Part shown: positions 15,713 to 61,215 of the stretch, piece after piece
Position numbering within the stretch: the first letter of the stretch is position 1
Layout: each line of letters opens with the position of its first letter
Assembly (NCBI RefSeq): GCF_002105155.1
Contig: NW_019028979.1
Location: 558,001 to 622,000 of the forward strand
Origin: Lobosporangium transversale
Lineage: Eukaryota
Reading direction: 5' to 3'
DNA length: 64,000 nt
Notes under the pieces: generated by a model
What the model saw: only the letters and a program-made list of their open reading frames with translations
Databases searched by the model: none
What the model was told of the DNA's origin: nothing
Program-made: the position numbers and the translations under genes

Positions 15713-15931
15713 AAATAAAAAATAAAAAATAAAAAATAAAAAATAAAAAATAAAAAATAAAAAATAAAAAATAAAAAATAAAAAATAAAAAATAAAAAAT
15801 AAAAAATAAAAAATAAAAAATAAAAAATAAAAAATAAAAAATAAAAAATAAAAAATAAAAAATAAAAAATAAAAAATAAAAAATAAAAAATAAAAAATAA
15901 AAAAAAAAAATAAAAAATAAAAAATAAAAAA
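15713..15931. repeat. Heptanucleotide tandem array (TAAAAAA)n, ~30 copies
   Basis: Directly visible, nearly perfect 7-bp periodicity. Confidence 0.95.
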
Positions 15932-15949: not shown

Positions 15950-16570
15950 GGCTCGCGAGAGGACAAAAAAGCAACAGTGAAAGTCGGGGCATGGGCATAG
16001 ACCATGGGTCCCTATACCATCCTAGGGCCAGATCCCAAAGGGGTTTAAAAGATTTAGCAAACTTAAGAAATTCAACCAACGTTCTGAATTCTCGCCACGG
16101 GCCAAATGCTTGAGCTTTGGAACGAGATGAAAGAGGAACAATCTTTCGAATACAGACGGATCCAATGGGTGTCGGTAAGAGCTTCTCTCCTATTTTTTGA
16201 CAGCAAGAGCATATGCTAAAGATGGCATACCCTCTATATCGCAGATGCAGGAGAGTTGGTTCGGTCTGATGAAGATACTGAGTTTAAGTTGATTCAACGT
16301 TTCCTGGTGCTCGATGGCGAAATTTTGATTTCCGACGATTAGAAAAGGCGTGCTAGTGCCCATCTTAGGTCCCGGGGCTCAGCCGCTAAAGCAATGTTTG
16401 AGAAAATCCTCATACAGAGGTCACAAGGGCGTAGGGGCCTTACGGTTGTCGATGGACATGGCAGGCTTTTCCAACCCGCTCCCCCAATGCCAAAGAAATA
16501 TACATATCTAAGCTATCCCTGGGAGGACTTGCCATTTGCTCTGATGACAAATCTGGATCTTGTTTGATCC
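15950..16570 (+). pseudogene. Degenerate coding-like relic of unknown origin with an intron-like segment (~16175-16244)
   Basis: Higher GC than flanks, short coding-like stretches (QMLELWNEMKEEQSFEYRRIQWVS|gtaag...cag) and stops in all frames. Confidence 0.25.
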
Positions 16571-16964
16571 TCACGGCAAACCAGATGTATTTTTTATGCT
16601 CTTTCGATTTTACTGCGACATAGAAAAACAGAGAAAAATAAAGTTATTGTACAAATTTGTACAATAAACGGTTGGATAGTATATTTGTCGTCATCCTTGC
16701 ATGGTCCGTGCGTGACATAGTCTGTGCAAGAGGTTCTTTAAAAAAAACTCATAAAATGAGCTAATTCCATGGTTTATTGATGATTCTTTTTTGACTAATG
16801 AATGTTTGGCAGATTAATATCGACTCAGTGGAGTTCTTGCACGCAGGCTGGCTCGTTGTAGGGCGGAGTAAACTTCACTGCTCTGAAATCAAGAATGTGG
16901 AAAATATTCAACGGACTTAAGACTTTGTATTATCCCAGTTATTATCTCTGTTTTCTTTTTCTTA

Positions 16965-17870
16965 GTGGTGCTTCTTGGCGCTAGGGGTTATCCTGACCCT
17001 ACCGAAATGTTAAGGAAGACATCTTAATACTGTATATGTTGTTGAAGGGCACCTCAATCTCTGAGATGAATGTATTTTTGCCCAAGAGGTCATTTCATGA
17101 CGTTATTACAGACTTTTTTTGACAGGAAAACGCTTATTTTAGATTAAAAATTAACCTCATGTGTTAGCAACATGTTCTCAAGTATAACCTTTCGTCTGCT
17201 AACGTCGCGGTCCATTAATCCAGAGGAGTTTAAGTGTAATACACTTCACATTGATGACCATGATAGCCGAGTGGCATACCTTATTGCGGACGAAGCTATT
17301 ATGTACTCATACAAACTCAAAAAGTCTGGGCTCCGCATTCAGGTGTGCTGTGGCATAAATAGTATGATTTTGTTTATATCTCAACCCGGCGAATGCCACG
17401 ATTTCAATGACGAAGTCATGCTCTTCAAGATGGCTATTGAGAAGAATATCCGTAACCTTGATTGCATTACTCTGGATGGAGGCTATGCACAATTTCTTCA
17501 CGGCATCGTTGAAAAGAGCGGCTAATTAAATTGTCGAATTTCTGTTGTGCAATCTGGAAGCTGAGAGGAATAGTATTGACAGGCCAGAAAAAAAGCTCAA
17601 CGAAATGATCGGAGGCTTTCATTCCGAGATAGAAAGTTGGTTTGGAGAGATGCGGAGTGCCTTCACAAAGTTTAGTCATACTGTGGTAAAGAGGATATCT
17701 GATATAAGCGCTTTCTTACTGCAATTCAAGCTATGCTGTTTACTCCTTAATATCAAACGCATGGTCGCCTTGTGGAATGTAACAGCAGAGCCGCATCAAA
17801 GCTTCTGGATGTAAGAGAGCTTCGACTATCCAGACGGCACTGATGCAAACGCTACTCAAAAACCTTTTTC
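16965..17870 (+). mobile_element. Degenerate PIF/Harbinger (IS5-like, DDE_Tnp_4) transposase pseudogene
   Basis: Fragments TLHIDDHDSR (IDG-type first Asp), YSYKLKKSGLRIQV, FNDEVM, ITLDGGY and FHSEIESWFG, interrupted by stops and frameshifts. Confidence 0.7.
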
Positions 17871-18019
17871 TCCAAAGACACTCATAGTATTCATAGCCCT
17901 CAGGATTATTCCTAGATCTCACTATCGCTACCACCACTACTATTGCTACTGTCCAAAGTGTCGGCAACGACCATGAGTTGAGCGATGACGCATTAGACGG
18001 TAGTTGTGGTATTTGCAAA

Positions 18020-18530
18020 TGAGCATCGCCCTGGCTCATGGAATATGAGTCCAACGTTTTCAAGAAGTTTGGGGCCTCTCTTCCAGCTTATGTTTGCGTA
18101 GTCTTCATCTATCAGGCCTTCACCGGCTGCCTTTAAAACACGCCGTGTTAAGGAATCCTTGAGAAAGTTTCAATTCCTGGCTGAGATCTTCTTCATCTAC
18201 GTCAGACTACTGCTGTCTCTTCGTCTGGACTGTGTCATAGGCAAGTGGATTCAGAACAAGGCCATTGGCAATATCGTTCCTTTGAGTTTGAACCGAGTTA
18301 TACCTTTGTCTTGTGCCTGTAGGGGTACCTTGTCTTGATAGCCATGAAACATGCGATCTCCTTCAATGTCACAAAGAGAGCCTGTATCTAGACCTCTTTT
18401 GCTCCCTGTACACATTCAAACACTGCAGCCTTGGAAGGATTGTCGAGAGGATGTCAGTTAGGACGTGTTCAGACAGATACACATACCGAGGGGGGACGTA
18501 AGGAAGTCTGTTTTTTTTATTTCTTGTTGA
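18020..18530 (-). pseudogene. Decayed internal fragment of a second Fanzor-like gene, paralogous to 18918-22833 and inverted
   Basis: Minus-strand pieces GYQDKVPLQ..RFKLKGT, NGLVLNPLAYDT and NISWKRGPKLLENV..C align in order with GYKDVGLQ..RKLRTS, NGLTLTLLAYDT and EINWKQRSRLLENV..C of the neighbouring gene. 15-nt exact inverted match at 18231-18245 vs 21257-21271. Confidence 0.8.
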
Positions 18531-18688: not shown

Positions 18689-18917
18689 TATAAATACGTC
18701 CTGCCTCCTTCTCTTTTTCCCTCTCTCTCTCTCTCTCTCATTTTACAACGACATTGCTTTCGCGCTCTCACCCGTACTCTTACACCCTCATCCCCTCACA
18801 GATCATAACTTTTTGCTTTCTTAAAGGTAAACTATCTCTACTCTAACAACTTCAGCTTCAATCTTTAGCCGCTTAAACCAACATTGCTTGCACTGTTTTA
18901 CACTATACTTTCTCTAG
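18689..18917 (+). promoter_or_regulatory. TATA box, CT-rich leader and 5'-UTR intron of the PIN-Fanzor gene
   Basis: TATAAATA at 18689, pyrimidine/CT tract, and a 91-nt GTAAAC(18827)...CTAG(18917) intron ending right before the ATG. Confidence 0.55.
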
Positions 18918-21900
18918 ATGGGTATTAAAGGACTCTATTCATACCTTTCAAGGAGAGACCTGCCACCAAAGGAGATTGATGTACATGAGCTTGCTGCTGA
19001 ACCCCATTCATCTTTTGAGCTGGATCTGCTTGGCACTTTCCACAGCGATATACATAATATCATCCTAAGGAGATTCAGCTGGCAGAGTTCTTTCACTGCC
19101 TGCGGCCATGCTATGGCTAGTATCATTCGAAAGATCTTTGGTCCTCTTGCCACAGTGACGATACACATTGATGGGCCTCGCTGCGAAGAAAAAACGCGTG
19201 CCTATAGGGACCGAGATGCTAAGCGTACAGCAGCGGATGCAAAACTCGATACGTTCATAGCCAACATGGAAACCAAGTCCAATGAAGGCAAATGGGAATC
19301 TCGAAGCCATATGATTGCCATTAAAAAGAATCTTCGACAGCTCTTCACATTCAGTCATAACGAGAAGAGGGAGCTCGCGGCGCCATTCGGTCGATACAAT
19401 AACTTTGTGATTTGCCATTGTAGAAATGAGGCTGATGTGTGTATTGCCGCCAAATGTACACCAACCAGTATCGCTGTGTCTGGGGACTCTGACCTTCTCA
19501 TCTATCCTTCTATAAAAAGAGTTCTTCGTCCAATCCCTCGTCGCCATCACATGTTTGCACTCTATGAGAAACAAGAGGTCCTGCAAGCCCTTGGGTTTTC
19601 AAGGAACAGTCAACTCCTGGTCTATGGCATTATATCCGATAACGATTACACCCCAAATATCCCAACCTTTGGTCTTGCTACAAATGCTGAGATTATCTCC
19701 GCGCTAACTGACACTGATGCCGAAAAGTTGACGGTATCATATGTTCGTGAGGTCCATGCCCGTAGCCGTCGAACTCCTGCAGAAGGCCAGTTTGACCATT
19801 CAATTAATGTTTTCTTTGGTGGGATCCAAACCCAGGCCTCGCAGCAACCAACCGCTGAAAGATTCCTTCATTACCATGATAGAATGAGGACTGCGATATC
19901 TGCTAGGTACCAGAATAAAAATAATCAACCTCAACCCAGGTAAGCTCCTTCAAATGAACATTTTCCAAAGCATATACAAAAAAAAAAAAAAAAAAGTCAT
20001 CTAACCCTTGACATTGTTGTTCCTAATTAGATTCTATATCCCTAAACGCGCAAAGCCGAATCGCTATCGGCCTGTTTTCCCTACCCAGAAAAAGGAACTT
20101 TCCCCTAAGAAATATGACCTGACCAACTGCAAACAACACGACCGTCCCGTCAGCTCCAGCCGTCAAAGAAAGTCCCCCAAAAAAAAGGAAAAGGAAAAAA
20201 AAGAGGATGACAAAGAAGAGGGGGTTAAGGAGGAAAAGAAGAAAAAAAAGAAGAACAAAGGGAAGGCCAAGTATATCAGAAAGACTGATAAGACCAGGAA
20301 AGTGAAGGAGGCTACTGCCGAGGACCGACGGTTGAAGAGGGCCCACCCCACTGTTGCATTAACTCTGGGCACGTTAAAGACATGTGTAGTTGCCAAGCTG
20401 GACTCTACTTCCGATCCCAATCTCAATCCCGAGCAACTTGCTGCAACAATTCAAGGGCTCATTCAATCATTTATTAAAATGTTGAATGAGGCACGGATTC
20501 GAGCTTTCTGGGCCTGCGCCTTGTGGATCGATAACCTGCTTACCACTGGGCCATCCAATCCAGCTGATCTCCCACAACTCCTAGATGAAGTTCTTGATAG
20601 CAGGGACTTTATTTACGGCCTTGCTGCGTTGTTGTATCACGGAGTGATGAGTCCATTATCTAGGTATAGCAGGGAAGTGAAGAAAAAAGGCGAAGGGAAC
20701 GTAGCCAAGCCGTCCCAGCTCAAAGCATACGAAAACTTCTATGCAAAGACAGGGCTTGGTCCTTTAAACCAGATCTATCCCGATTTGGTGATCAGCAGGT
20801 CGTCTCGGATGGTCATGGTCCCTGTTCAAGCAGCGCTAAGGTCTCACTATCGGAATGCGCAGGTAAATATAATATTATAATATTTTGAGGTTATCTTATA
20901 ATATGTTTATAGAAATGTTCCTAATCATTTCTTCAATATAATGTCTAGTTTGACATAGATATTCCAGGCGATGGAAGAAGTTCCATCCAATTCTTTTTCG
21001 AGCAAAATGCAACTGCCAAAAAATATCTGGATTATTATGGTCTAACCCAACAGTTCGAGAGGAAATAGCCCAATTGTTGGAACTAAACATGAGTACCAAG
21101 GGGGCTGCAGAGGACAAGATCCTTAACCACAAGGGGATATTGTTGCAGGAGCTGTTTTCCTTGAAAGGATACAAGGACGTTGGACTACAATCTGATGATG
21201 GCCCTAGAAGGAAACTACGGACATCGTTCTTTACAAACGGCCTTACCCTAACACTTCTTGCCTATGACACATCGAAGCAAAAAAGAGGTAGAGGTTCGCA
21301 AGCTGCCCAACCTTCGGATACTCAAAGATCTCAAGCAGTCCAGGCTTCTTCAAGTGCTCAGCAGGGATCCTCGTCTTCAGGCCATGGTGCAGGTGATGGT
21401 GGTGATGATGGAGACGACGACGGAAATGAAGATGACGATATCTTGCTGGGTATCAGCGATATTGACTTGCTGGAAGTTGATGAACCATTCTTAGATGGCG
21501 GAGAGGGAGAAGAAGCAGCTAAAGAAGGTACATCGAGCACAAATCCACTGTTCCCGGTGAGTCCCAGTCCCCGGCGTGAGATCAACTGGAAGCAGAGATC
21601 CCGTCTCCTCGAGAATGTAGAAGTTAAATATGACACCCAGGCGGCATGCCCTCCCTCCGAAAGTACCATTATCATTAGGATCGATCCAGGCGAGAGGTAC
21701 TCGATGACAATTGCAAAGTTGGATCCAAGGAAACCTAACGAACGTGAGATCCTTCGGATTTCTAGAGCGTACCTTTACAAACCATCCAAGAAGTTTCAAG
21801 GCGAGCTAGAGAGGCGAAAGCTTAGAAGAGGAATTACAGAGATTGAAAGCAATATTCCGTCATTCTCAAGGCCTACTTTAACACAGTATTTCGCTTATAT

Positions 21901-22833
21901 GAGCTTGCTGCTAAATCAAGCTCCATCAAGTACTGGAGGTAGTTTCTCTGGTAGTGGGGTTGGGGCCAGTAGTAGCAGTAGAGCAGGGATCGGTAGTAGC
22001 AGTGGAGTTGAGGCCAGTAGTAGCAGTGGATCTGGGATCAGTGACGACAATAGGGAGACTATATATAGGGCGCTTGTCGATTTCTATAATGACGGGTGGT
22101 TTGTTCGGAATAGCTGGGATATTAGAAAAGCACAGAACGGATGCATTGATTATGTGATCAAGGCAATTCTGAAGCTTGCGGGCGGAAGCAATGGAAGAAG
22201 AAGAGATGCCAATACGAATGCGGTGATCTGTATTGGACTAGGATCATTCAAGACAAACCGAGGACAAGTATCGAAGCATGGGATATTGATGAAGAAGCTT
22301 GTTGAAAAGGTAAAAAAAAAAAAAAAAAAAATCCCTTGATCAATGACATTTAATTTTTGAGTCTTTTTTTTAACGAGTATTAAATCTGGCTCGAACAGGC
22401 AAAATCTCTAGACTACCCCATTGTAGGTTGTCATGAATACTACACATCTGCCAAGTGTCCACGGCCTCACTGTGACAGTATATTGGAGAATGTTCCTTTT
22501 CGATCCAAGTACTGTCGAAATTGTAAAGCATACTTTGATCGAGATGCTGTTGGTGCTGAGAACATCGCAAGGGTCTGTGAGTCGCAGATAAGAGAGCAAA
22601 AACGACCTGCAAAATATATGCCGCCGGACGGAGGAACTCAAGGCCAAGCTTCTAGCGGTAGTGGCGGCGGTGGAGGTAGTGGTGGCAGTGGTGGCAGTGG
22701 TGGTGGTAGTAGCAGACCCACAAAAAGGAAATTTTCAGATGAAGGAGGAGGAGGAGTAGAGGGATCAAGACCACCGAAAGGACCTTTGCTGGGTCCAGGA
22801 GGAGGGGGAGAGACAAGCCGGCAACAGCAGTAG
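18918..22833 (+). CDS. XPG/FEN1-like PIN nuclease fused to a Fanzor/TnpB-like RuvC-zinc-finger nuclease; exons 18918-19939, 20031-20862, 20949-22309, 22399-22833; apparent frameshift near 21030 (possibly pseudogenized)
   Basis: PIN motifs MGIKGL, ELDLLG, HIDG..EK, EADVCIA, SGDSDLL, NDYTPNIPTFGL. RuvC-I IDPG (Asp 21683), ICIGLGSF, HEYYTSAKCPRPHC (Glu 22435), YCRNC..FDRDAVGAENIA (Asp 22543). Introns are 91, 86 and 89 nt GT-AG, and introns 1 and 3 join in frame. Confidence 0.85.
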
Positions 22834-22849
22834 GACACAATCTACTACA

Positions 22850-23110
22850 AACATGACTAGGTCCAGAAAGGCCTTCGTCTTAAAAAAATTGTAAGTATTG
22901 GCTTGATAGTACTTTTTTTTCTTGGTTAATTTATTTATTTATTTATTTCTGTGTTCTAATACATTTCTTTTTACAATAGATGGAATGTCTCGTTTTTTAA
23001 TGGGACGGACTATAAAGCATGAACTTGCATTTGACCCTGCAGAAATAAAAGATGATTTTATTTTTTATTTTTTTTATTTTGCGTTCATTGACTTGTGCAT
23101 AAGTGGAGGC
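22850..23110 (+). ncRNA. Candidate omega-like guide RNA region downstream of the Fanzor-like gene
   Basis: Sits 3' of the RuvC gene, with G-U-containing hairpins at 22855-22879 and 22987-23006 separated by an intron-like segment 22891-22979; boundaries unknown. Confidence 0.3.
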
Positions 23111-23326: not shown

Positions 23327-24640
23327 TTACGTCTTCTTGTGCCAGACCAACTTGAAACCATCAGTCGCCTCTGGATCGACATACTTTGCCAGACCCAGAG
23401 TCTTAAAACGTTGGTCAATCAAAAGCCCTTTGCATAGCTCCGCAATGACGAGTACTTGAAGATTTGGGCAGAAGAGCAGAGCCTCAAAGAATCGACTTGT
23501 CGTCGCTCCAGGAGCCACCAAGTGCAGCTGCTCTAGTCGCTTACAGCTTTTGGCTAATGCAATCAGTGACTCTTGACGGTAAGTCATCCCGCTTTGAGCT
23601 GATCCAGCACGGGGCAAGATTAGGTTGCGCAAATAACGAAGTTTGGATAAGGTCTGGAATGATACATCCGAGATCTGGTTGGCATCCAACAGTGAGATGT
23701 ATTGAAGGCGTAGGCAGTTCGAGGTCAACTCAAGGATAACCTCGTCATTGATCTTGGGTGCTGTAGTCTCAATCCACGAAACGTTCAAATGGCGCAGATT
23801 AGGACAATGCCTTGCAAACTCAATCATCTCGGCTGCTCCTAGACACTCATCCGAATCCAGAAGGACCAATTTTGTGAGAGCCTTTCCACAAGTCCGTGCC
23901 AACTGTTGGAATGTCTCCTCCGGAATGTTTTTGCAGCGCTTGAGAACCAACTCTGTCAGTGGATTTGTATCCGTAGCAAACATGTGCAATGGATGCCCAT
24001 TTCCGACCGGCAAGATAGGACAGATATAATTCGTGAGTGTCAAGATGAATAACCGACGACAGGACTCTGCTAAAGCGTTCCAGGGAATGAGACCTTCTTC
24101 GTTTTCAGTCGAAATCTGGCGTCCAGTGGCAAAAACCAGTGTCAGATCGCGAAGTCGCTTGCAACAATGCTCTGACAAAGCAAGGATGACATCGGGGGTG
24201 ATCCAGTTGATGACAAACTGACCATTTTGCTTATCAACGACATCATGCGAGTCAATAATCTCAATCCGTTTGACAAATTCTCCATATTCATGTGTAGATG
24301 AAAAGTCGGCATTTTCGGTCAACTGCAAAAAGACATTGAGTTCCTCGCCTGCCTTCCAACCATGAAAGGAACGTTCCTGCCAAAGGAGAGGCGACGCGAT
24401 GGCATTCCAAGTCTTACAGACTAACGTGAGTGGCCTCAGATGGTGATAGAGGGTATGTGTTCGGTGATTAAGGTAGTCGTAATGTTGGACAGCCAGAAAA
24501 GAAAAGATGTGTCGGAGCAGGTATGGATCGAGCGAGTGAATGCCTACAGGACGATTTACATTATCGCCTTGACCTGATGGACTTTTGTCAAGGATAGTTG
24601 AATCAATGGCGGCAACGTCCGTAAGACCGCCTTGGTCCAC
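23327..24640 (-). CDS. F-box / RNI-like leucine-rich repeat protein (5' and 3' ends uncertain)
   Basis: SLDPYLLRHIFSFL..LTLVCKTWNAIASPLLW F-box followed by cysteine-containing LRRs (CPNLRHLNVSW, CLRLQYISL, CKRLEQLHL). Confidence 0.8.
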   Translation of the reverse strand: MDQGGLTDVAAIDSTILDKSPSGQGDNVNRPVGIHSLDPYLLRHIFSFLAVQHYDYLNHRTHTLYHHLRPLTLVCKTWNAIASPLLWQERSFHGWKAGEELNVFLQLTENADFSSTHEYGEFVKRIEIIDSHDVVDKQNGQFVINWITPDVILALSEHCCKRLRDLTLVFATGRQISTENEEGLIPWNALAESCRRLFILTLTNYICPILPVGNGHPLHMFATDTNPLTELVLKRCKNIPEETFQQLARTCGKALTKLVLLDSDECLGAAEMIEFARHCPNLRHLNVSWIETTAPKINDEVILELTSNCLRLQYISLLDANQISDVSFQTLSKLRYLRNLILPRAGSAQSGMTYRQESLIALAKSCKRLEQLHLVAPGATTSRFFEALLFCPNLQVLVIAELCKGLLIDQRFKTLGLAKYVDPEATDGFKLVWHKKT

Positions 24641-25682
24641 ATCCTTGTGTGTGCTGTCGAGTGACTCCAGGTCGAAAAAAGTGATGCTGGAAATAGTAGG
24701 TAGAATGCCTTGCGATGCTGTTTGCTCGTTGCAATTGGGGCGTAAAAGATTTTAAAAAAAAGTCGATTGAATGTTTAATTATTTCCTCACACAGAAGCGA
24801 CCTTTTCAAGTTGAAATCCTTGTTACTAGATCGGATTCCAGGCGCATTTAAAGAAAAGGAGACAATCGAGAATGTTCCTGCGAGTCTAAAAAGTATTTGC
24901 CAGGTTAAATTGGTAAGATGAGACATGAATATTGAATTGTTATAGGCTGTGACTCCTAGTCATTAAACTTTTGCTTCTATTACACATATAATGTGATGAT
25001 GTCTATGCCTTCTTTCATTTTATGAATCAATGTGTTTTTTTTTTTTTTAACATGATAGAATCTGATAACATGTTACTGTATGTGAATGGCAAGCTAAAAA
25101 AAATTACCTTTTGTAATTGCTTTTATTAGCGTTCTGTTGCTATTGCTGATTGTCCCTGCGCAGAGTGTGTCAGAAAAGTGCTGTAGAGATTATAAAGAGC
25201 CTAAGACTTAGAAAGAATAAAGAAAAGAAGAAGAAAGAAGAAAGAAGAAAGAAAGAAGGAAAAGGTCAGAAAAGCACGAGACATACACTCCAACACAGCA
25301 CGCAAAAAATGGGGCGTAACAACTCGTGAGAGTAAAATGTCATTAGGTTTTTTATTAATGTAAACTTTGTAAACTACAAATAATAAGTAAGAATATATTG
25401 CGAACTCAGCCTAGTCTAATTGTTGGCTTCTTGTGCCTTCCTCCATCTCGCATTGACCGCACTTTTGGGCAAAGACAATCTTTCTTCATTCTTCCTCGAC
25501 ATCTCTTTCTTCCTTCACTCTCGCTTTCATACTTTTCTACCTCGCTCTTGTTGCTCTTCGTCTTCTTCCTACACTATCCTATCTCTCTCCCTCTTTTTTT
25601 TTTTATTCTACTCCTCCTTCTGGGAGCAAGACAGTGGGATTCCTGATTAACACGACCTAACGGCTCCTTTCTTCTTTTCCCA

Positions 25683-52881: not shown

Positions 52882-55800
52882 GTTGTATTTATTCAAATAA
52901 ACATAATTTAAAAAGCCAGGTGTTTTGGCAAAGCCAAGAAACAAGACCATGTGTATTATAATAGATGTTGATCTGTCGCTATGCTAGGCCTTATTGGGCT
53001 GGATGTTCAGTCTTCTTTAGGACACAAAAAAAAGTGAGGGCTCCGGGCTCGCATGAGGGCTAGAAAATATTTATTTTCCTGAAATTCCTCACCAATGACT
53101 CGGAATACTATACCTCAAGTAGTGAAGTCACCCAATACTGCGCCAAAAACACTTGTAAATCCCTAGAATGATGTAATATATGTGTTCGCATGTCTCTAGA
53201 GCGTTATACGTGGTTTAGATATAAAAAAAAACTATCAAGTTTCTATGCTGAAGATGTTTAACGAAAACGCGTCTAAACATCGGTTGCTGTCTAGTTTTTA
53301 CTTGAAAATAAACAAACCCTGCTAAAGATATCCAAACTCTCCAAACTTCCCGAATAAATAGAGTTCCAAATGAGGGCTATGAATCGTTAATAATCTCAAG
53401 GTGTTTACTGAATAAACAGAAGTTTATCATGTGCCTAAATATCAAAAAGTCTTCAAAAATTGTTGTTTTTTCAGCTTTACGTATATGAAAACTCGAAGCC
53501 TGTCCTTGTAAAGCCAGGCGTTAGAATATAGCTGTAGTTAGTAGCTACCATTAATGCCACGGGCTATGAAGAGATACGATGTATGAGAATGCTATATATA
53601 TTCTAACTCTGAAAATAGAGGTTAAAGGATGGAGTCATTGTCCGGTTCACTTGATCATGCTATAATTCATTCGTAGTATATTTTGGATATTTTAAAATAG
53701 CTTCTAAGGTTGTTAGGATAATTACCAGCCAACATATATAAAATACAACACTTCGAATGAATTGTGTCGTGACCAAGTGAACTGGACATACAAACTCATG
53801 TCATGTTTTGTTTGAGCACTACAAAAAAGGCCGCGTTTACAATCCATGGAGATTCAAAAGACTTACTTTACTATCCCAATTCCTTGACACACCTTATAGC
53901 TCTGAGCCTTTGCTTTCGTTTCATTATCCCACATTCTATACCTCTGAACCTTCATTTTCATTTATTGTCTCATTTCTTGAAACTATGCCTGCCACACGTT
54001 CCACACGTTCGTCAACTGCACCTTCATCTTCCATATGTCCGTCGGCTGTTAAAGGCTCTCGCTCTATTATGGAGCTTCGAGCCATTCGACAACCGTTTCT
54101 CAGTTGAAAGGGTCCACATCGGGGGTGCAACGTATCATCCGAGCACGGTGAACCAAGCGGGCTGTGCGACGTATCATCCAAGCACGGTCTGTGGAGACTG
54201 AAGAAGAGTCACAAGGCCAACAGGTTACGGAGGATGAGGAGAAGCTTTATAATAAGGTTTACAACTGCGTTGACGAGTGCACCTTGCTTGACTTCCTCGA
54301 AAGGGAGAGAAAAGAAGGGAGAGAAAAGAAGGGAAAGGAAAGAACAAGAGAAAAGAAGAGTTTTAGAGCAAACTTAGATTTAGCGTTTGCTTGGACACAG
54401 GTTCTGTCGTACAGAAGAGAGTCGGTTAGGTGAAGCTGAGTATTATACGATAAACAAAAAAAAGTAAGAAACACGAGTCAGTGGCGTCAAGGCCAAGGTC
54501 TTAGTACTTCTTTGAGCCAAATCATTTAATTTATCCCTTGGACCGTAAGCACATTTAGTTTCCATCAACTCATAGGCAGCTCAGGTGCAGTTCTCTATGC
54601 TTTCTACTAGCAGAAAGCAACCGTCTGTTGCATGCCAACAAAAAAAAAATTAGTAAAGATTAATCAGTAAATATTATTCATAAAAAATCAATCAGCAAAA
54701 AGCATATATTAAGCTATATCACCACGATGCACTATGTCCACCATTTACTTGCCTCCACTCTTTTAGCACATCTAGAGACATTTACCATTTTTTCATTCCT
54801 TCTTCCTCAGTCTAAAGAAAAACAAAACACCATTCCTGCTCCTTTTACGCTAGGGGAATGTTACCGAATCTCCATATTGATCTAAAAATGGTTATCTTTC
54901 AAGACTTTAAAAAATCAATTGATTGCATCTTTGCCTCTAACAGCAATAGCATCAAGGCAAACTGCTAGGGGGTATTCATAGATATTCCACCAGAGCACGT
55001 TGTTACCAAACCAACCTTAGTAATCTCCTAGAACCAGCCCTACCACGGTTAAAATACTATCTTAGATGCGTGGTATATTTAATCATGATGCGATTAGTGC
55101 CGGAAATATTGGTGAGATCTCAACCTCCAGGCCCGACTTCGAGAAGTGCCGAACGGAATGTGACGAAATTTTATCACAAGGATCTATAGGTGTGGGACGC
55201 ACAGCTGTGAGCAATGTTGTGAACAATGCGATACAAGTACATGATGCCCGTGAGCATAATTATCTTTAACAACACAATATGCGTCAGTTGTTATGGATGA
55301 ATAGATGACTTATGAGTCTTTGCTATTGTTGCTTGAGTGGGGATTGCTCGCGACGTTAACGTTGCAGCTGGGGACCGTGAGTATCGTATCTTTCATGCCA
55401 AGCTTAAATAGCTTATTTCTCATCAGAATTGGCATGGAACTTACTCCTCAAACGACAGATGGGTCAGATATACCTTTTTGTGTGTTGCTTTTATGCAACT
55501 GTTGCTCGTATCCGCAGTCTCCCTACTAACTTAGTATTATGTTCAGTACTCGTGTAAATAGATAACCAAGTTGCAGTGCGTCTCACTTTCTGGCTACTTG
55601 AATTGTATATCACTTTGCCAATTCTTACTGAATAATCATTAATTTATTAAGACGAGTTTACATCAAGTGTTACCCCACTAATGGCCTCAAACCAACCAAC
55701 GGCCCCGAACCAGTCAATTGCATCATCAACAAGCATCGCGCCATCAAGAGCGACCAAGATCCCGCAGGCATCTGGGATGCCTCCTGGCAAGAGGCGCGAA

Positions 55801-57887: not shown

Positions 57888-60800
57888 ATGACGTCTAATA
57901 GCGATCTCGATTTCAGTTTTGAAGAGAAGAAATACAACGACATGAGCGATGTTGAACAGCAGGAGGAAGACAACGACATCTACTATTCTGAAGAGAGAGA
58001 AAACAACATCAGTTATAATGAGAAGGATGAAGAAAACAACACCAGTTATAATGAAGAGGGGGAAGATTGCGGAGATAATCTATATGCGGGATCTATGAGT
58101 GAGGGAGTTGAAGATGAAGTCGAAGCAGAGTACTGGTCTGATGAAGATAACGATGGGTGTAGATCACCTGTAAGTCTACATACATCGTCTGGTGCCTTTT
58201 AAGCATTGACACGCTTCATGACGACTTATTCTAAAATACAAATGCAACTCTTCTCTTGAAATTTTAAAAGTCCTACTTAGCCCACCAATATCGCTTGGAG
58301 TCTTTAACTTATGGAGAGCTGGATGCACCGCAAGATGTCATTGTAACATTGCAAGTTTCCATAGTCGAAAATGAACTCCTCAACAATAGAAGATCTTCAC
58401 CGCTTCTGGAGGCTGAAAATACCCATAAACTTGCATCGTCTGCAAGGTTTTTGTCATCGGTCTCTTCTCCTCAGCTGCACACCCCATATCAACCTTTGAA
58501 CACTCCACATCGCTCTTCAGGGACTCCACATCGCTCTTTAGGCACCCCATATCATTCCTTGAACACTTCGCATCCCTCTTCCGGCACTCCATATCGCTCT
58601 TCAGGCACTCCATATTACTCTTTAAACACTCCATATCGCTCTTCGAACACTTCCTCTTCACGCAGGCCTCTAGCAGCCACGTTGCCACCTCGGCAGAGAG
58701 AGTCAACCTCAAGTTTTAACAAGTTTCGGGGCCCTATTTCCCTGGAAGAATTCTTCAAGGTCCCGTTCTTCAAGACCCGTTTCCTCAAGATCCCTTTGCT
58801 CAAAGTCATCGTCGAGCTCTGTACAATATGGTGAGTTGCAGAGTCCACAGTCAGCCAAGAAGATCCTACAGAGCCTCATTCATCAGGCACAGCCACCATC
58901 TTCCCGTGCATGCACACGTCCACCAACGCTCAGTGCTGCCCATGATACCTCATCGTTCATCCAGATTTCAGAATTAGACTCTGAGGCGCAATCTATATTG
59001 GAATTACGTCGACAGAACTTGCAAATGGTTAATGAGATATCCGAAGGATGGTGCAAGTTGTATGAAACTCTTGCTCTTGGCACTATTCCGACTCCTGACC
59101 AGTGTGCCGAGGCCCCACAATCGCAGCAAGCTCTTGCAAATATCCCATTTACGCAGGCTCAGCGCAAGGACAGTTTAATGGGACATTTTTTTGAGTCCAT
59201 AAAAAATGTGGGGTTCGTTTGCAAGACGCGTCAGGCCGATAGTGTCTGTGCTTTTCATTTTAAGGTAATGTAAGTGGGAATGCTCGGAAAAGACATGTCG
59301 CACAACATCACGGGGATGAGTATAGTGCTCTTCTCGAATTTCGATCATACCAGCTTTCGGTCCAAGGCGTAGAAACAGCGCAAGAAACATCGCAAGAGAA
59401 TCCGCATGAGATACCACTTGGAGATAAAGGAGACATATCCTTGATGCTAAGAAGATCGAAGTCTGAAATTGTCAGAGAAGAAGTAATGATTTCAAACATG
59501 AAAAAACCAAATTGGTTTGAAAAAGACAATTTCGAAAAGTTACTTTTGCGGATGATTGTCATCGATGGGGCGCCATTTTCGCTACTCAAGTCGGACTCTT
59601 TCGCTGCTCTTTGGAGGTTACGCAACATAGATTTTAGTATACCCTGTCAAGAAACATTACAAGCCAGGCTGAGGGACCGTGTGCAAGATTATAAGCTGAG
59701 GTTCAAGCAATATGCTCATATGAATTTAGATGCAGTTTCAATCACCGCAGATTGCTGGTCTAGCATAGATCAAAGGAAGTACCTTGGGATCATTGCCCAT
59801 TTTGTGACGCCTGAGTTCAAACTAGCTTCTGTAGTCCTTAGAATGGAGCGAACGGATGAATCCTATACGGCAGAATATTTGCTGCAGAAAATACGTAAGT
59901 GAGCTTTGATCCGTATCTCTAGCCTGACTGCTAACCGTTAAGTAAGATTTTAACTCTGGGCTGTCGATTGATAGACCAAGTTACGGATGACTGGGGCCTT
60001 GAGGAAAAGATAATTTGTGTGACGACTGGTCAGGGAACTAACATCAAAAAAGCAATGGGAACATATTCCACTGAAACAGGAGCTGCCTGGATTTCGTGTG
60101 CTTCCCATAAGCTACAGCTATGCGTCAATAAGGCGATAGAGTGTTCCCAAAAGGCAAAGGCGATATTCGATAAGTGCCAAAAGATATCGACATATTTCAG
60201 GAATCATCAGGAGCCGGCGAAAATCCTTGCTGCAAAACAATTAAACCGCTACGGGGAAGCGCGCAAACTACCGACAGTAAATGCAACGTGCTGGAACTCC
60301 CACTTCATTATGGCGGGAAGAGTGTATGAAACCAGAGATGCAATAGTAGCAGCACTTGAAGAGCTGGACAGCATTCCAAAAATCCGGCAAGTTAAGGGCA
60401 GAAGCATTACCTTTTTACCTGAAGAAATCCTCGCACTTGGCGAAATAGTTTCGATCTTAGAGCCTGCATCTCATCTCACGCATTGGTTGGGTAAAACCGA
60501 CAGCCCGACAGTTTCACAAGTTTACTCGAAAATCCATGGACTTATTCCTGCCTCCATCACGGTCGAGACGGAAGCAGCGGTGCAGCTACGTCAACACTTG
60601 GGTGACCAGATCAAGGAGAAATGGTCGCTCGCGGATATACCGGACCCAGTGCTTCTTTCGAGTTATCTGAATCCAGGCTGTGCTGCATTACCCATCTTCG
60701 ATGACCTTGTGGATGGAACTAATACAACGCTCCGAGATAAGGCGAAAACTCTTGCTAAAGATGCCTACATGGAGATGCGGAAAAAAACCCCAAAGGCGCC

Positions 60801-61215
60801 CCAAACCGACTCCCAAACGGATTTTTTAGATGGAAAGTCTGTGTTTCCTTCTATAAATGGCGCAGCTGCCAGCTCTCTCAGCCAATCGTACATGCTTTTG
60901 GAGAGCCAGTTTGCCGTAACTGCCTACGATATCCTTCTTACTGAGAGGAGGGAAGATCTCCTCGAAACTGTTGACAAGGCACTCGAATTCTGGAAGTACC
61001 AAGAAGCTGTTGAAAAAAGGAATGGTACCAAAACTATTCAGGACCTGCCAAGGTTGGCTCGTTTGTTTTTGTGTATCCAGGCCACATCAAATGAATGCAA
61101 GCGACTGTTCAGTAAGGCTGGACTCATACTTACAGAACGCAGGACTGGGCTTTCAGACCACAATCTTTGCAACATGATCTTTTTTAACAGCTTTTATAAA
61201 TTTTATGAGGAGTAG
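57888..61215 (+). mobile_element. hAT transposase (BED finger, DDE, dimerization domain), inactivated
   Basis: AVSITADCWS, CASHKLQL (CxxH), TCWNS, IQATSNECKRLFSKAG..RRTGL; frameshifted BED finger at ~59180-59315; introns present. Confidence 0.88.
58480..58647 (+). repeat. 21-bp coding minisatellite, 8 copies (TP[YH]xS[SL][GN] heptads)
   Basis: Consensus CACTCCATATCGCTCTTCAGG in tandem. Confidence 0.9.

Follow-up and report, generated by a model that had tools for sequence, protein, structure and literature searches.

Fanzor1 proteins (SpuFz1, 8GKH/9CEU-Z; PpFz1, 9CF0-1; GtFz1, 9CER; Bao & Jurka 2013, Saito 2023, Xu 2024) are among the closest described systems to the protein family reported here, with which they share a WED-REC-RuvC-TNB fold, a DPG motif, a relocated Glu, an RD motif and a T[ND]G motif. 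Fanzor1 proteins are recognized by the motif D-X(125,275)-[TS][TS]-X-X-C4 zinc finger-X(5,50)-RD (Bao & Jurka), and the scaffold RNA of SpuFz1 is 75 nt long with two stems (PMC10432273). What biological role Fanzors play is not yet settled (PMC10432273). Restorative homing is a supported role of TnpB and a proposed role of Fanzor (PMC13565253, in its accessible part; for Fanzor also PMC10432273). A second relevant group is formed by the FEN-like nucleases, which include the XRN ribonucleases and are defined by a set of seven metal-binding acidic residues (PMC5499597, as far as its available text goes).

The locus lies in a stretch of 64,000 nucleotides of the Lobosporangium transversale genome (NW_019028979.1, positions 558,001 to 622,000), termed the window, from whose first letter all positions are counted. 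It is a frameshifted copy of a repeated gene, without an intact frame of about 1,200 aa, and encodes the parts of a predicted FEN1/EXO1-type 5' nuclease followed by a Fanzor1 protein (Table 1).

Table 1. Features of the locus in window coordinates
Feature	Position	Strand	Evidence
Decayed inverted piece of a second Fanzor1 family (P0269/P0287 type)	17989..18520	-	tblastn; ends just before RuvC-I
5' UTR intron, 91 nt, GT-AG	18827..18917	+	Joint in RNA-like run X7; abuts start codon
Exon 1, FEN1/EXO1/XPG-family 5' nuclease (by model)	18918..19939	+	Model, Foldseek, profile, conservation
Intron 1, 91 nt, GT-AG	19940..20030	+	X7 joint, 213 letters on short side
Exon 2, low-complexity Lys-rich linker (putatively NLS-like), then first WED strand and REC helices of Fanzor1	20031..20862	+	Homolog model aligned to SpuFz1; tblastn of homologs
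Intron 2, 86 nt, GT-AG	20863..20948	+	X7 joint; acceptor also used in sister proteins
Exon 3, remaining REC/WED, acidic insertion, RuvC-I, bridge region, acid-less RuvC-II strand	20949..22309	+	Two reading frames due to deletion
Site of frameshifting deletion, ~61 nt (size inferred from sister proteins)	21033..21034	+	Sister-copy residues, contig ends; stop at 21066
Intron 3, 89 nt, GT-AG	22310..22398	+	Used by annotated sister proteins; no RNA joint among those listed
Exon 4, relocated catalytic Glu, C4 zinc finger (TNB), RuvC-III Asp, Gly-rich tail, stop	22399..22833	+	Pfam PF07282, E 7e-7, above cut-off
Predicted omegaRNA scaffold, first part: stem 1 (~22859-22874) and A-rich linker	22842..22890	+	Conserved in 5 other loci
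Spliceosomal intron in predicted scaffold, 89 nt, between linker and stem 2	22891..22979	+	X7 joint
Predicted scaffold, second part: stem 2 up to element right end (CTAT/CTATA)	22980..23014	+	Fold z, contig breakpoints
Predicted guide segment from flanking DNA	23015..23030	+	Analogy with SpuFz1 (PMC10432273)

Gene structure and transcription

Contigs of run X7 skip exactly introns 1 and 2 as well as the two UTR introns (18827-18917 and 22891-22979), and none of these four joints was found in the DNA-like runs X4 and X6. X7 was accepted as a presumed RNA run since the four GT-AG joints occur in X7 alone. An X7 contig begins at the intron 3 acceptor. The first-pass annotation had joined four open reading frames through GT-AG introns of 86-91 nt into a single protein of about 1,200 aa. 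The introns of 91, 86 and 89 nt stand, the first two by X7 joints, while the single frame does not and is interrupted by a stop at codon 658. Both UTR introns and the WED/REC lobe of about 400 aa described below were missing from that annotation. One X7 contig links the start codon to exon 2 across the joint of intron 1, so the transcript extends beyond exon 1. The reading as two separate genes, which a transcript ending there would have favoured, is ruled out by this contig and by the common occurrence of fused homologs. The window copy differs from every covering contig at several sites, including the residue preceding RuvC-I, and one X7 contig carries an extra A in the linker at 20241.

The N-terminal 5' nuclease

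The AlphaFold model of exon 1 (pLDDT 96), analysed with Foldseek and VIA, presents a PIN-like core with a helical arch and an H3TH-like motif. All seven PIN acidic residues (D36, D85, E171, D173, D190, D192 and D243) were found at 19023-19644, which agrees with the FEN1/XPG/Exo1 motifs quoted in the earlier annotation, and the acidic and K92/R99 sites are conserved in 50-60 of 60 sequences per site. Judged by its modelled fold and these residues, exon 1 is a FEN1/EXO1-type 5' nuclease; it is only 14-17% identical to known 5' nucleases and lies below the Pfam cut-offs. The signals for a subfamily differ, as the profile comparison points to Rad2 (E 7e-15), Foldseek to FEN1 (E 3.7e-10) and the atlas to viral clusters, whereas VIA gives a tie between EXO1 (Z 23.1) and FEN1 (Z 22.4), so that the modelled fold does not separate resection (EXO1) from flap trimming (FEN1). 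The nearest clusters by features are FEN1-like proteins of giant viruses and poxviruses, and viral models score equal to cellular models against the head. Among 21 candidate stretches in prokaryote genomes and 2 candidates in IMG/VR, none proved to be a relative of the head, in searches that reach close relatives only. With FEN1, EXO1, XPG (Rad2), GEN1, the NCLDV flap endonucleases and poxvirus G5 the head shares the fold, the N-terminal Met-Gly, the Lys/Arg residues of the helical arch, the seven acids and the H3TH-like motif. Unlike any of these, it is fused to a predicted RNA-guided nuclease within a mobile element.

The Fanzor1 part

All C-terminal motifs listed in the first-pass annotation could be located, namely the RuvC-I DPG (D at 21683), ICIGLG (ending at 22241), the relocated Glu (22435), the zinc-finger cysteines (from 22456) and the terminal RD with the RuvC-III Asp (22543). 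The rearranged RuvC is thus present, with DPG, an acid-less canonical RuvC-II strand and a Glu six residues before the zinc finger. About 220 residues separate D from TS and five the last Cys from RD, as in the Bao & Jurka motif. A WED/REC lobe of about 400 aa lies between linker and RuvC-I, and a TNG motif (TDG-type, WED) is found at 21233.

The fold was analysed on the full-length homolog P0133 in place of the broken window copy. The top seven structure matches of its tail model were all Fanzor1 proteins (Z 14-17.6, 473-481 residues aligned), and the alignment to SpuFz1 starts at SpuFz1 residue 18, from the strand equivalent to the exon 2 WED strand. According to this model, the portion following the head in the full-length homolog is a whole Fanzor1 (WED-REC-RuvC-TNB). 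Profile and structure matches therefore bear out the domain assignment proposed earlier for both halves. The linker between head and Fanzor has a pLDDT below 50 in the P0133 model and therefore no fixed geometry of the two parts is predicted. No relative of P0133 was detected in phages by a search that reaches close relatives only; a viral scan with exon 4 returned one weak locus (L010).

The fused family differs from described Fanzor1 proteins in its head of about 340 aa and in its total length (1050-1500 aa versus 400-700 aa quoted for Fanzors). In addition, 16 of the 33 fused homologs carry DLG in place of the Fanzor1 DPG.

The fused family in Mortierellaceae

The presence of both domains in one chain, which the first-pass annotation had asked for in homologs, proved common. 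The nuclease head was detected in 34 of the 38 listed Mortierellaceae relatives of at least 900 aa and is absent from the other four; among the long relatives first found via the zinc-finger search, the count is 28/32. By these sequence comparisons, fusion is the rule among long relatives. The head occurs in just two of the 82 listed relatives shorter than 900 aa, many of which are flagged as partial, and standalone forms without head may exist. A count of 15/20 from a C-terminal profile was set aside as partly circular. XPG_I was detected in 47/60 head members and XRN_N in 3/60. Of the 33 fused homologs, 31 retain the RuvC D-E-D triad; the seven head acids never vary where a residue is aligned (1-8 gaps per site), and all nine checked head residues are kept in 21/33. 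Trees of head and Fanzor part have 18 of 30 splits in common (11/16 and 11/15 of the well-supported splits), and the distances show a rank correlation of 0.75, which none of 999 permutations reached. At the level of sequence, this congruence indicates inheritance as one unit and not functional coupling.

Supplementary Table 1 of Saito 2023 already includes, under the label FZ1, a sister copy with 96% identity as well as fused relatives of full length, and family members also appear in the Fanzor1 supplementary tables of Yoon 2023. The earlier remark that no characterised Fanzor of this architecture was known has to be narrowed accordingly: the proteins had been catalogued, and the N-terminal nuclease is not mentioned in the Saito list. 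In the literature searched, neither the nuclease head nor a spliced omegaRNA was mentioned; Repbase reports, subscription papers, patents and some supplements lay outside this search and may describe the fusion.

A frameshift disrupts the window copy

With the 86-nt intron 2, the frame stops at 21066 (codon 658) because about 61 nt present in sister copies are missing near 21033. The sister copies P0167, P0280 and P0281 have 21 extra residues where the window changes frame. Contigs of X4, X6 and X7 part from the window sequence at 21033, with loose ends in X4 and X6 and 18 unmatched letters in an X7 contig. Two of the 30 donor/acceptor combinations tried gave an open frame of 1205-1206 aa (acceptors 20977 or 20980, introns of 115-118 nt), and these acceptors were ruled out, as they have no RNA joint and replace a conserved segment. 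The frameshift may be a sequencing error, given that none of the contigs shown spans 21033 in the form of the window, although a loss of about 61 nt is unlike a homopolymer slip. The window copy would yield just a 657-aa stub of head plus REC, and its scaffold may still provide guide RNA. The broken frame lowers the case for activity of this copy, not its membership in the family. Among the annotated proteins of the family seen in the same species, the longest has 834 aa and lacks the head.

Element ends and the predicted guide RNA

Nine members of the P0164 cluster, on contigs of eight different lengths in one species, attest to a multi-copy element, and a multi-copy nature, a structured 3' end and a variable flank are features shared with Fanzor1 elements. 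The right end is sharp: seven contigs in X7, X4 and X8 run into other sequence at 23013/23014, and loci L002 and L003 are 86% alike before the CTAT/CTATA end motif and 45% after it. On the left, the inverted piece at 17989..18520 is probably the left arm of the same element. Beyond 17989, where a loose end lies, the sequence goes on to a DPG motif, and in one X7 contig the arm is connected to an opposite-strand variant of 22842-22910. No inverted copy of the right end was detected near the element within the window, no transposase or TnpA-like ORF lies inside the element, and window and contigs together identified no left end, target-site duplication or cognate transposase. An upstream DDE-like remnant (E 0.13) could not be linked to the element.

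The 3' region resembles an omegaRNA scaffold of two stems, divided by one or two spliceosomal introns; its layout matches that of the SpuFz1 scaffold, and its guide function is putative. The region from 22841/22842 on is common to several element variants, and several scaffold-bearing variants are transcribed. Stem 1 shows compensatory changes in four of five pairs. The fold z of the right end is -3.6 for the stem 2 part alone, -3.0 for the spliced and -0.9 for the unspliced form. The intron-split 3' motif was seen in 5/8 fungal-like loci and not in L005, L006 and L007; L009 was left out of the count owing to its weak 21-residue match. An intron-like stretch interrupts the same place of the scaffold in L002, L003, L004 and L008 and is absent in L001. 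Introns of the family are 81-106 nt GT-AG introns with branch-site motifs; splicing of the scaffold itself was observed in one RNA-like run (X7). Unlike in Fanzor1, the predicted scaffold is interrupted by spliceosomal introns. A close parallel is provided by IStrons, TnpB elements whose group I intron overlaps the omegaRNA, in which splicing and guide RNA also meet at the right end. According to the accessible portion of the sources, IStrons are bacterial and self-splicing, and their splicing excises the element and competes with the guide, whereas removal of the short GT-AG introns described here would build the scaffold. Neither a group I intron that splices itself and spans the element nor a TnpA was found in the element.

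Proposed mechanism and alternatives

For the intact relatives we favour, at even odds (about 0.5), an RNA-guided break combined with built-in 5' end processing that would promote restorative homing. The gene is transcribed and spliced in the presumed RNA run, and the transcript continues past the 3' intron as far as the right end and the flanking DNA. Once spliced, the 3' terminus (about 70-85 nt, with a linker and two stems), together with about 15 nt of flank, would constitute the omegaRNA. As suggested by fold and residues, the Fanzor1 part would bind this RNA and cut the element-free allele beside an AT-rich, probably TA-containing motif. The tethered head would then resect or trim the 5' strands to leave 3' overhangs, so that repair would be templated by the element-bearing chromatid or nucleus. 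Moves to new sites would require a transposase in trans because none is present inside the element. Two precedents, each available in part, fit such a scheme: Cas9-EXO1 fusions raise HDR and lower NHEJ (PMC11107001), and the FEN1-like G5 of poxviruses is required for break repair (PMC9415595).

The head might instead act on RNA, trimming either an RNA:DNA hybrid or the spliced mRNA at its 5' end, so that mature omegaRNA is freed or the R-loop is cleared after the cut. FEN1 and EXO1 have RNase H-like activity. The predicted scaffold is the tail of a spliced transcript and 5' processing would be needed, and the FEN-like group takes in XRN ribonucleases (PMC5499597, partial text); other Fanzor1 proteins, however, produce mature omegaRNA without such a domain, and the head is nearer to FEN1/EXO1/XPG than to XRN by the profile counts given above. 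We regard this role as unlikely. Homing by guided break and end processing also competes with the idea of the head as cargo: a 5' nuclease, once captured, would have stayed fused and active while working independently of the guided cut, for instance by assisting replication or repair of element or host in a general way. The long, predictedly disordered linker would suit a passenger, and the viral FEN1-like nearest clusters would agree with a gene captured from a virus, which is no more than a lead. Yet even subfamilies that split deeply have kept the head in frame and its residues intact; more frequent decay or detachment would be expected of a passenger, which makes the cargo reading quite improbable.

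Two further proposals concern the element as a whole. The fused protein could mobilise it without a transposase, by guided cuts and flap processing at its ends or at near-matching sites followed by copy-in through host repair. The lack of an internal transposase, the right-end variant that appears to cap the left arm as well and the many dispersed copies are in line with this; but a flank-derived guide points to the old site and not to a new one, sharp ends in CTAT/CTATA are expected from a transposase, and Fanzor elements that have inverted repeats but no transposase are known, for which movement in trans is assumed. We consider such self-mobilisation very improbable. Still less credence is given to partial domestication as host defence, in which an enzyme that cuts and degrades would be directed against viruses or other mobile DNA by the guides of many copies. 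A cutter with an exonuclease suits destruction, exonuclease-Cas12a fusions enlarge deletions according to a partly available source, and several scaffold-bearing variants are transcribed; against this, guides are predicted from flanking host DNA, and the copies are dispersed, often broken and strain-variable, as selfish elements are.

Significance

Retention of an end-processing nuclease on Fanzor1 across many fungal genera points to homologous-recombination repair, and the role of a Fanzor becomes testable via two separable point mutants. In engineered Cas9- and Cas12a-exonuclease fusions, as far as the available sources describe them, a guided cutter is likewise tethered to a 5' exonuclease. 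Those fusions are artificial, whereas the Mortierellaceae fusion is natural and eukaryotic, with predicted activity; if the proposal is true, the family would be their natural counterpart and offer dozens of intact candidates. OmegaRNA predictions and cell-free screens that start from genomic DNA would miss or mis-build spliced guides. As a broader and more tentative view, possible rather than probable, Mortierellaceae may hold a large and still-intact family of natural two-nuclease Fanzors, in which a programmable cutter is joined to a FEN1/EXO1-type end-processing head, with the first spliceosome-assembled omegaRNA (in some members via a micro-exon of 6-12 nt) and with element ends that each possibly encode an outward-reading guide. 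Such a spliced guide scaffold would couple guide production to the host spliceosome.

A conserved nuclease head fused to Fanzor1

The first exon of the window gene was modeled from a 60-sequence alignment (pLDDT 96). The model matched human FEN1 (Foldseek E 3.7e-10) and, in a tie, EXO1 (Z 23.1, rmsd 2.7 over 276 residues) and FEN1 (Z 22.4). A profile of this head matched 34 solved sequences, all of them Rad2/XPG, FEN1, EXO1 or GEN1, and residues D36, D85, E171, D173, D190, D192, D243, K92 and R99 were each kept in 50-60 of the 60 sequences. These results support the FEN1/XPG/Exo1 N-terminus proposed by the first-pass annotation. Pfam alone misses the head (XPG_I at E 0.097 only), which may explain why it has so far gone unremarked. 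The closest atlas clusters are FEN1-like proteins of giant viruses and poxviruses, and viral models score on par with cellular models against the head, a likeness that is a lead on its origin rather than a test of it.

The tail was analyzed on a model of P0133, a near-full-length fused homolog (pLDDT 73, linker disordered). Its top seven matches were all Fanzor1 structures in both programs used (E 4e-11 to 2e-7; Z 14-17.6 over 466-481 residues). Because these matches span SpuFz1 residues 18 to 633, the model places a complete Fanzor1, including the WED and REC lobe, after the head. The Bao-Jurka motif, DPG, the relocated Glu and the T[ND]G motif are all present, and the Fanzor C-terminus read from the RuvC and zinc-finger motifs is thus borne out.

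Relatives of the head number 515 among 50%-identity representatives. A zinc-finger profile search returned 215 proteins, and among the best 120 of these the head was present in 34 of the 38 with at least 900 aa, which provides the homologs with both domains in one chain that had been proposed as a check. Of the shorter proteins, many of them partial models, 1 of 12 at 500-899 aa and 1 of 70 under 500 aa have the head. The named members belong to Benniella, Podila, Mortierella, Linnemannia, Dissophora, Entomortierella, Actinomortierella, Gryganskiella and Haplosporangium. In a set of 33 fused proteins, 31 keep the complete RuvC triad, the head acids carry no substitution at aligned sites, and head and tail trees, built without the window protein, have 18 of 30 splits in common (rank correlation 0.75). 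By these sequence comparisons, the fusion is old within Mortierellaceae and both active sites have been kept.

Structure of the window gene

The previously described motifs and three GT-AG introns were found in place. Four introns (see table) are skipped in contigs of X7, a presumed RNA run; none of these joints is present in the DNA-like runs X4 and X6.

Features in and around the window gene and element
Feature	Position	Strand	Remarks
TAAAAAA tandem array	15713-15930		long
DDE_Tnp_4 (Harbinger/ISL2EU-like) transposase remnant	16188-17988	+	decayed; Pfam E 0.13, weak
Palindrome	16644-16667		perfect, 24 nt
Second-family Fanzor1 piece (P0269 cluster)	17989-18520	-	decayed; upstream of window gene
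5' UTR intron	18827-18917	+	skipped in X7 contigs
Intron 1	19940-20030	+	GT-AG; skipped in X7 contigs
Intron 2	20863-20948	+	GT-AG; 86 nt; skipped in X7 contigs
Intron 3	22310-22398	+	GT-AG
Post-stop intron	22891-22979	+	skipped in X7 contigs
F-box/LRR gene	23327-24751	-	3' end toward element's right end
Zinc-finger/RuvC-III remnant, same superfamily	32925-32550	-	decayed; then same linker-donor motif and intron-like stretch
Zinc-finger/RuvC-III remnant	54956-55119	+	decayed
hAT-type transposase	59264-61215	+	C-terminal dimerisation domain E 3e-9

Of the single spliced gene of ~1200 aa that had been proposed, the introns stood but the open frame did not: joined across the 86-nt intron, it ends at a stop at 21066 (codon 658). 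Of 30 splice combinations tried, 2 gave an open frame, both using acceptors without RNA support. The homolog P0001 follows the window in one frame to 21035 and in another past that point. Three sister copies (P0167, P0280 and P0281, 96% identical) have 21 residues at the frame change, and contigs of three runs leave the window sequence at 21033, which indicates a loss of about 61 nt that shifts the frame of the window copy. The 3' half of the gene is already annotated separately as P0164, a 551-aa TNB-domain protein of Lobosporangium transversale. The window locus is a dead copy, and the finding is the family.

A predicted spliced omegaRNA scaffold

After the stop, the window and five of eight fungal-like loci carry a short hairpin (stem 1), an A-rich linker and a splice donor or intron-less equivalent. 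Compensatory changes occur in 4 of 5 pairs of stem 1 (5 distinct sequences), and its covariation score was reached by 0 of 500 shuffles (slid structures 0.02-0.22 versus 0.64), with few, related sequences that also supplied the structure. In the window, a single intron separates the linker from stem 2; loci L002, L003 and L004 have this and a second within stem 2, with micro-exons of 6 or 12 nt, and L001 is without the first, its sequence running continuously across the joint. Spliced, the distance from stop to element end is 70-92 nt. For the window, the spliced sequence gives a two-stem fold (z -3.0, against -0.9 when unspliced), while minimum-energy folding of L002 and L003 did not recover the short stem 2. 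Splicing of the 3' region was seen only in the window's family and in one run, X7, where unspliced right-end contigs have higher depth than spliced ones. By inference, the guide is the spliced form. A single contig of run X8 on 22776-22900, from a related strain, carries 16 C-to-T and 1 G-to-A changes; this one-sided pattern could reflect a mutated copy or a converted library.

The element and its surroundings

The P0164 cluster comprises 9 members in one species, on contigs of 8 different lengths. The right end is sharp: beyond 23013 or 23014, 7 contigs from three runs carry different sequence, and the similarity of two metagenome copies drops from 86% over the 300 nt before a common CTATA to 45% after it. 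The upstream second-family piece belongs to a cluster of 15 members; other copies run on past DPG, and one X7 contig links this arm to an opposite-strand variant of 22842-22910. The depth of this variant matches that of the gene's own 3' contig (193 versus 191 in X4, 20 versus 19 in X1). From these contig pieces, the odds are about even that the element is two-armed, with a scaffold at each end, and left-truncated in the window. The annotated models of this second family (P0269/P0287, 15 or more) are ~450 aa long and start past the position of intron 2.

No transposase was found inside the element. In X4 and X6, the contig of the DDE_Tnp_4 remnant continues beyond 17988 with different sequence; the remnant-element junction thus varies between strains. 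Fanzor-Harbinger pairs are known from Mucor. A weak zinc-finger match (E 7e-5) lies on a viral contig at L010:7450-7578.

Proposed function and prior knowledge

The intact protein, guided by the omegaRNA, would cut the element-free allele, the head would process the 5' ends and homologous repair would then restore the element. We give this reading, the most likely one, a probability of roughly 0.5. It is modelled on restorative homing as described for TnpB and proposed for Fanzor (PMC13565253, PMC10432273) and on what EXO1 does when tethered to Cas9 (Shi 2024, PMC11107001). Alternatively, the head might mature the guide or clear the hybrid, which is distinctly less probable. That it is independent cargo seems unlikely, a little more so that it lets the protein mobilise the element by itself, and a role of the fused protein in host defence is the least likely.

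Members of the family are on record: Supplementary Table 1 of Saito 2023 (PMC10432273) gives XP_021884711.1, the sister copy, as an FZ1 hypothetical protein, along with fused relatives of full length, and a 1186-aa Mortierella member is in Table S2 of Yoon 2023. None of the searched supplement files contains XPG, FEN1, flap or PIN in the sense of a domain, the two Jiang files gave no match, and passage searches in the main texts of Saito, Jiang, Yoon and Xu and in a 2026 review returned no such fusion. Literature searches found no description of it or of a spliceosome-processed omegaRNA. The first-pass annotation knew of no characterized Fanzor with this architecture, and these searches returned none, but members were already catalogued as FZ1. 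An already catalogued yet unexamined Fanzor1 clade carries a second nuclease, and its guide is probably spliced.
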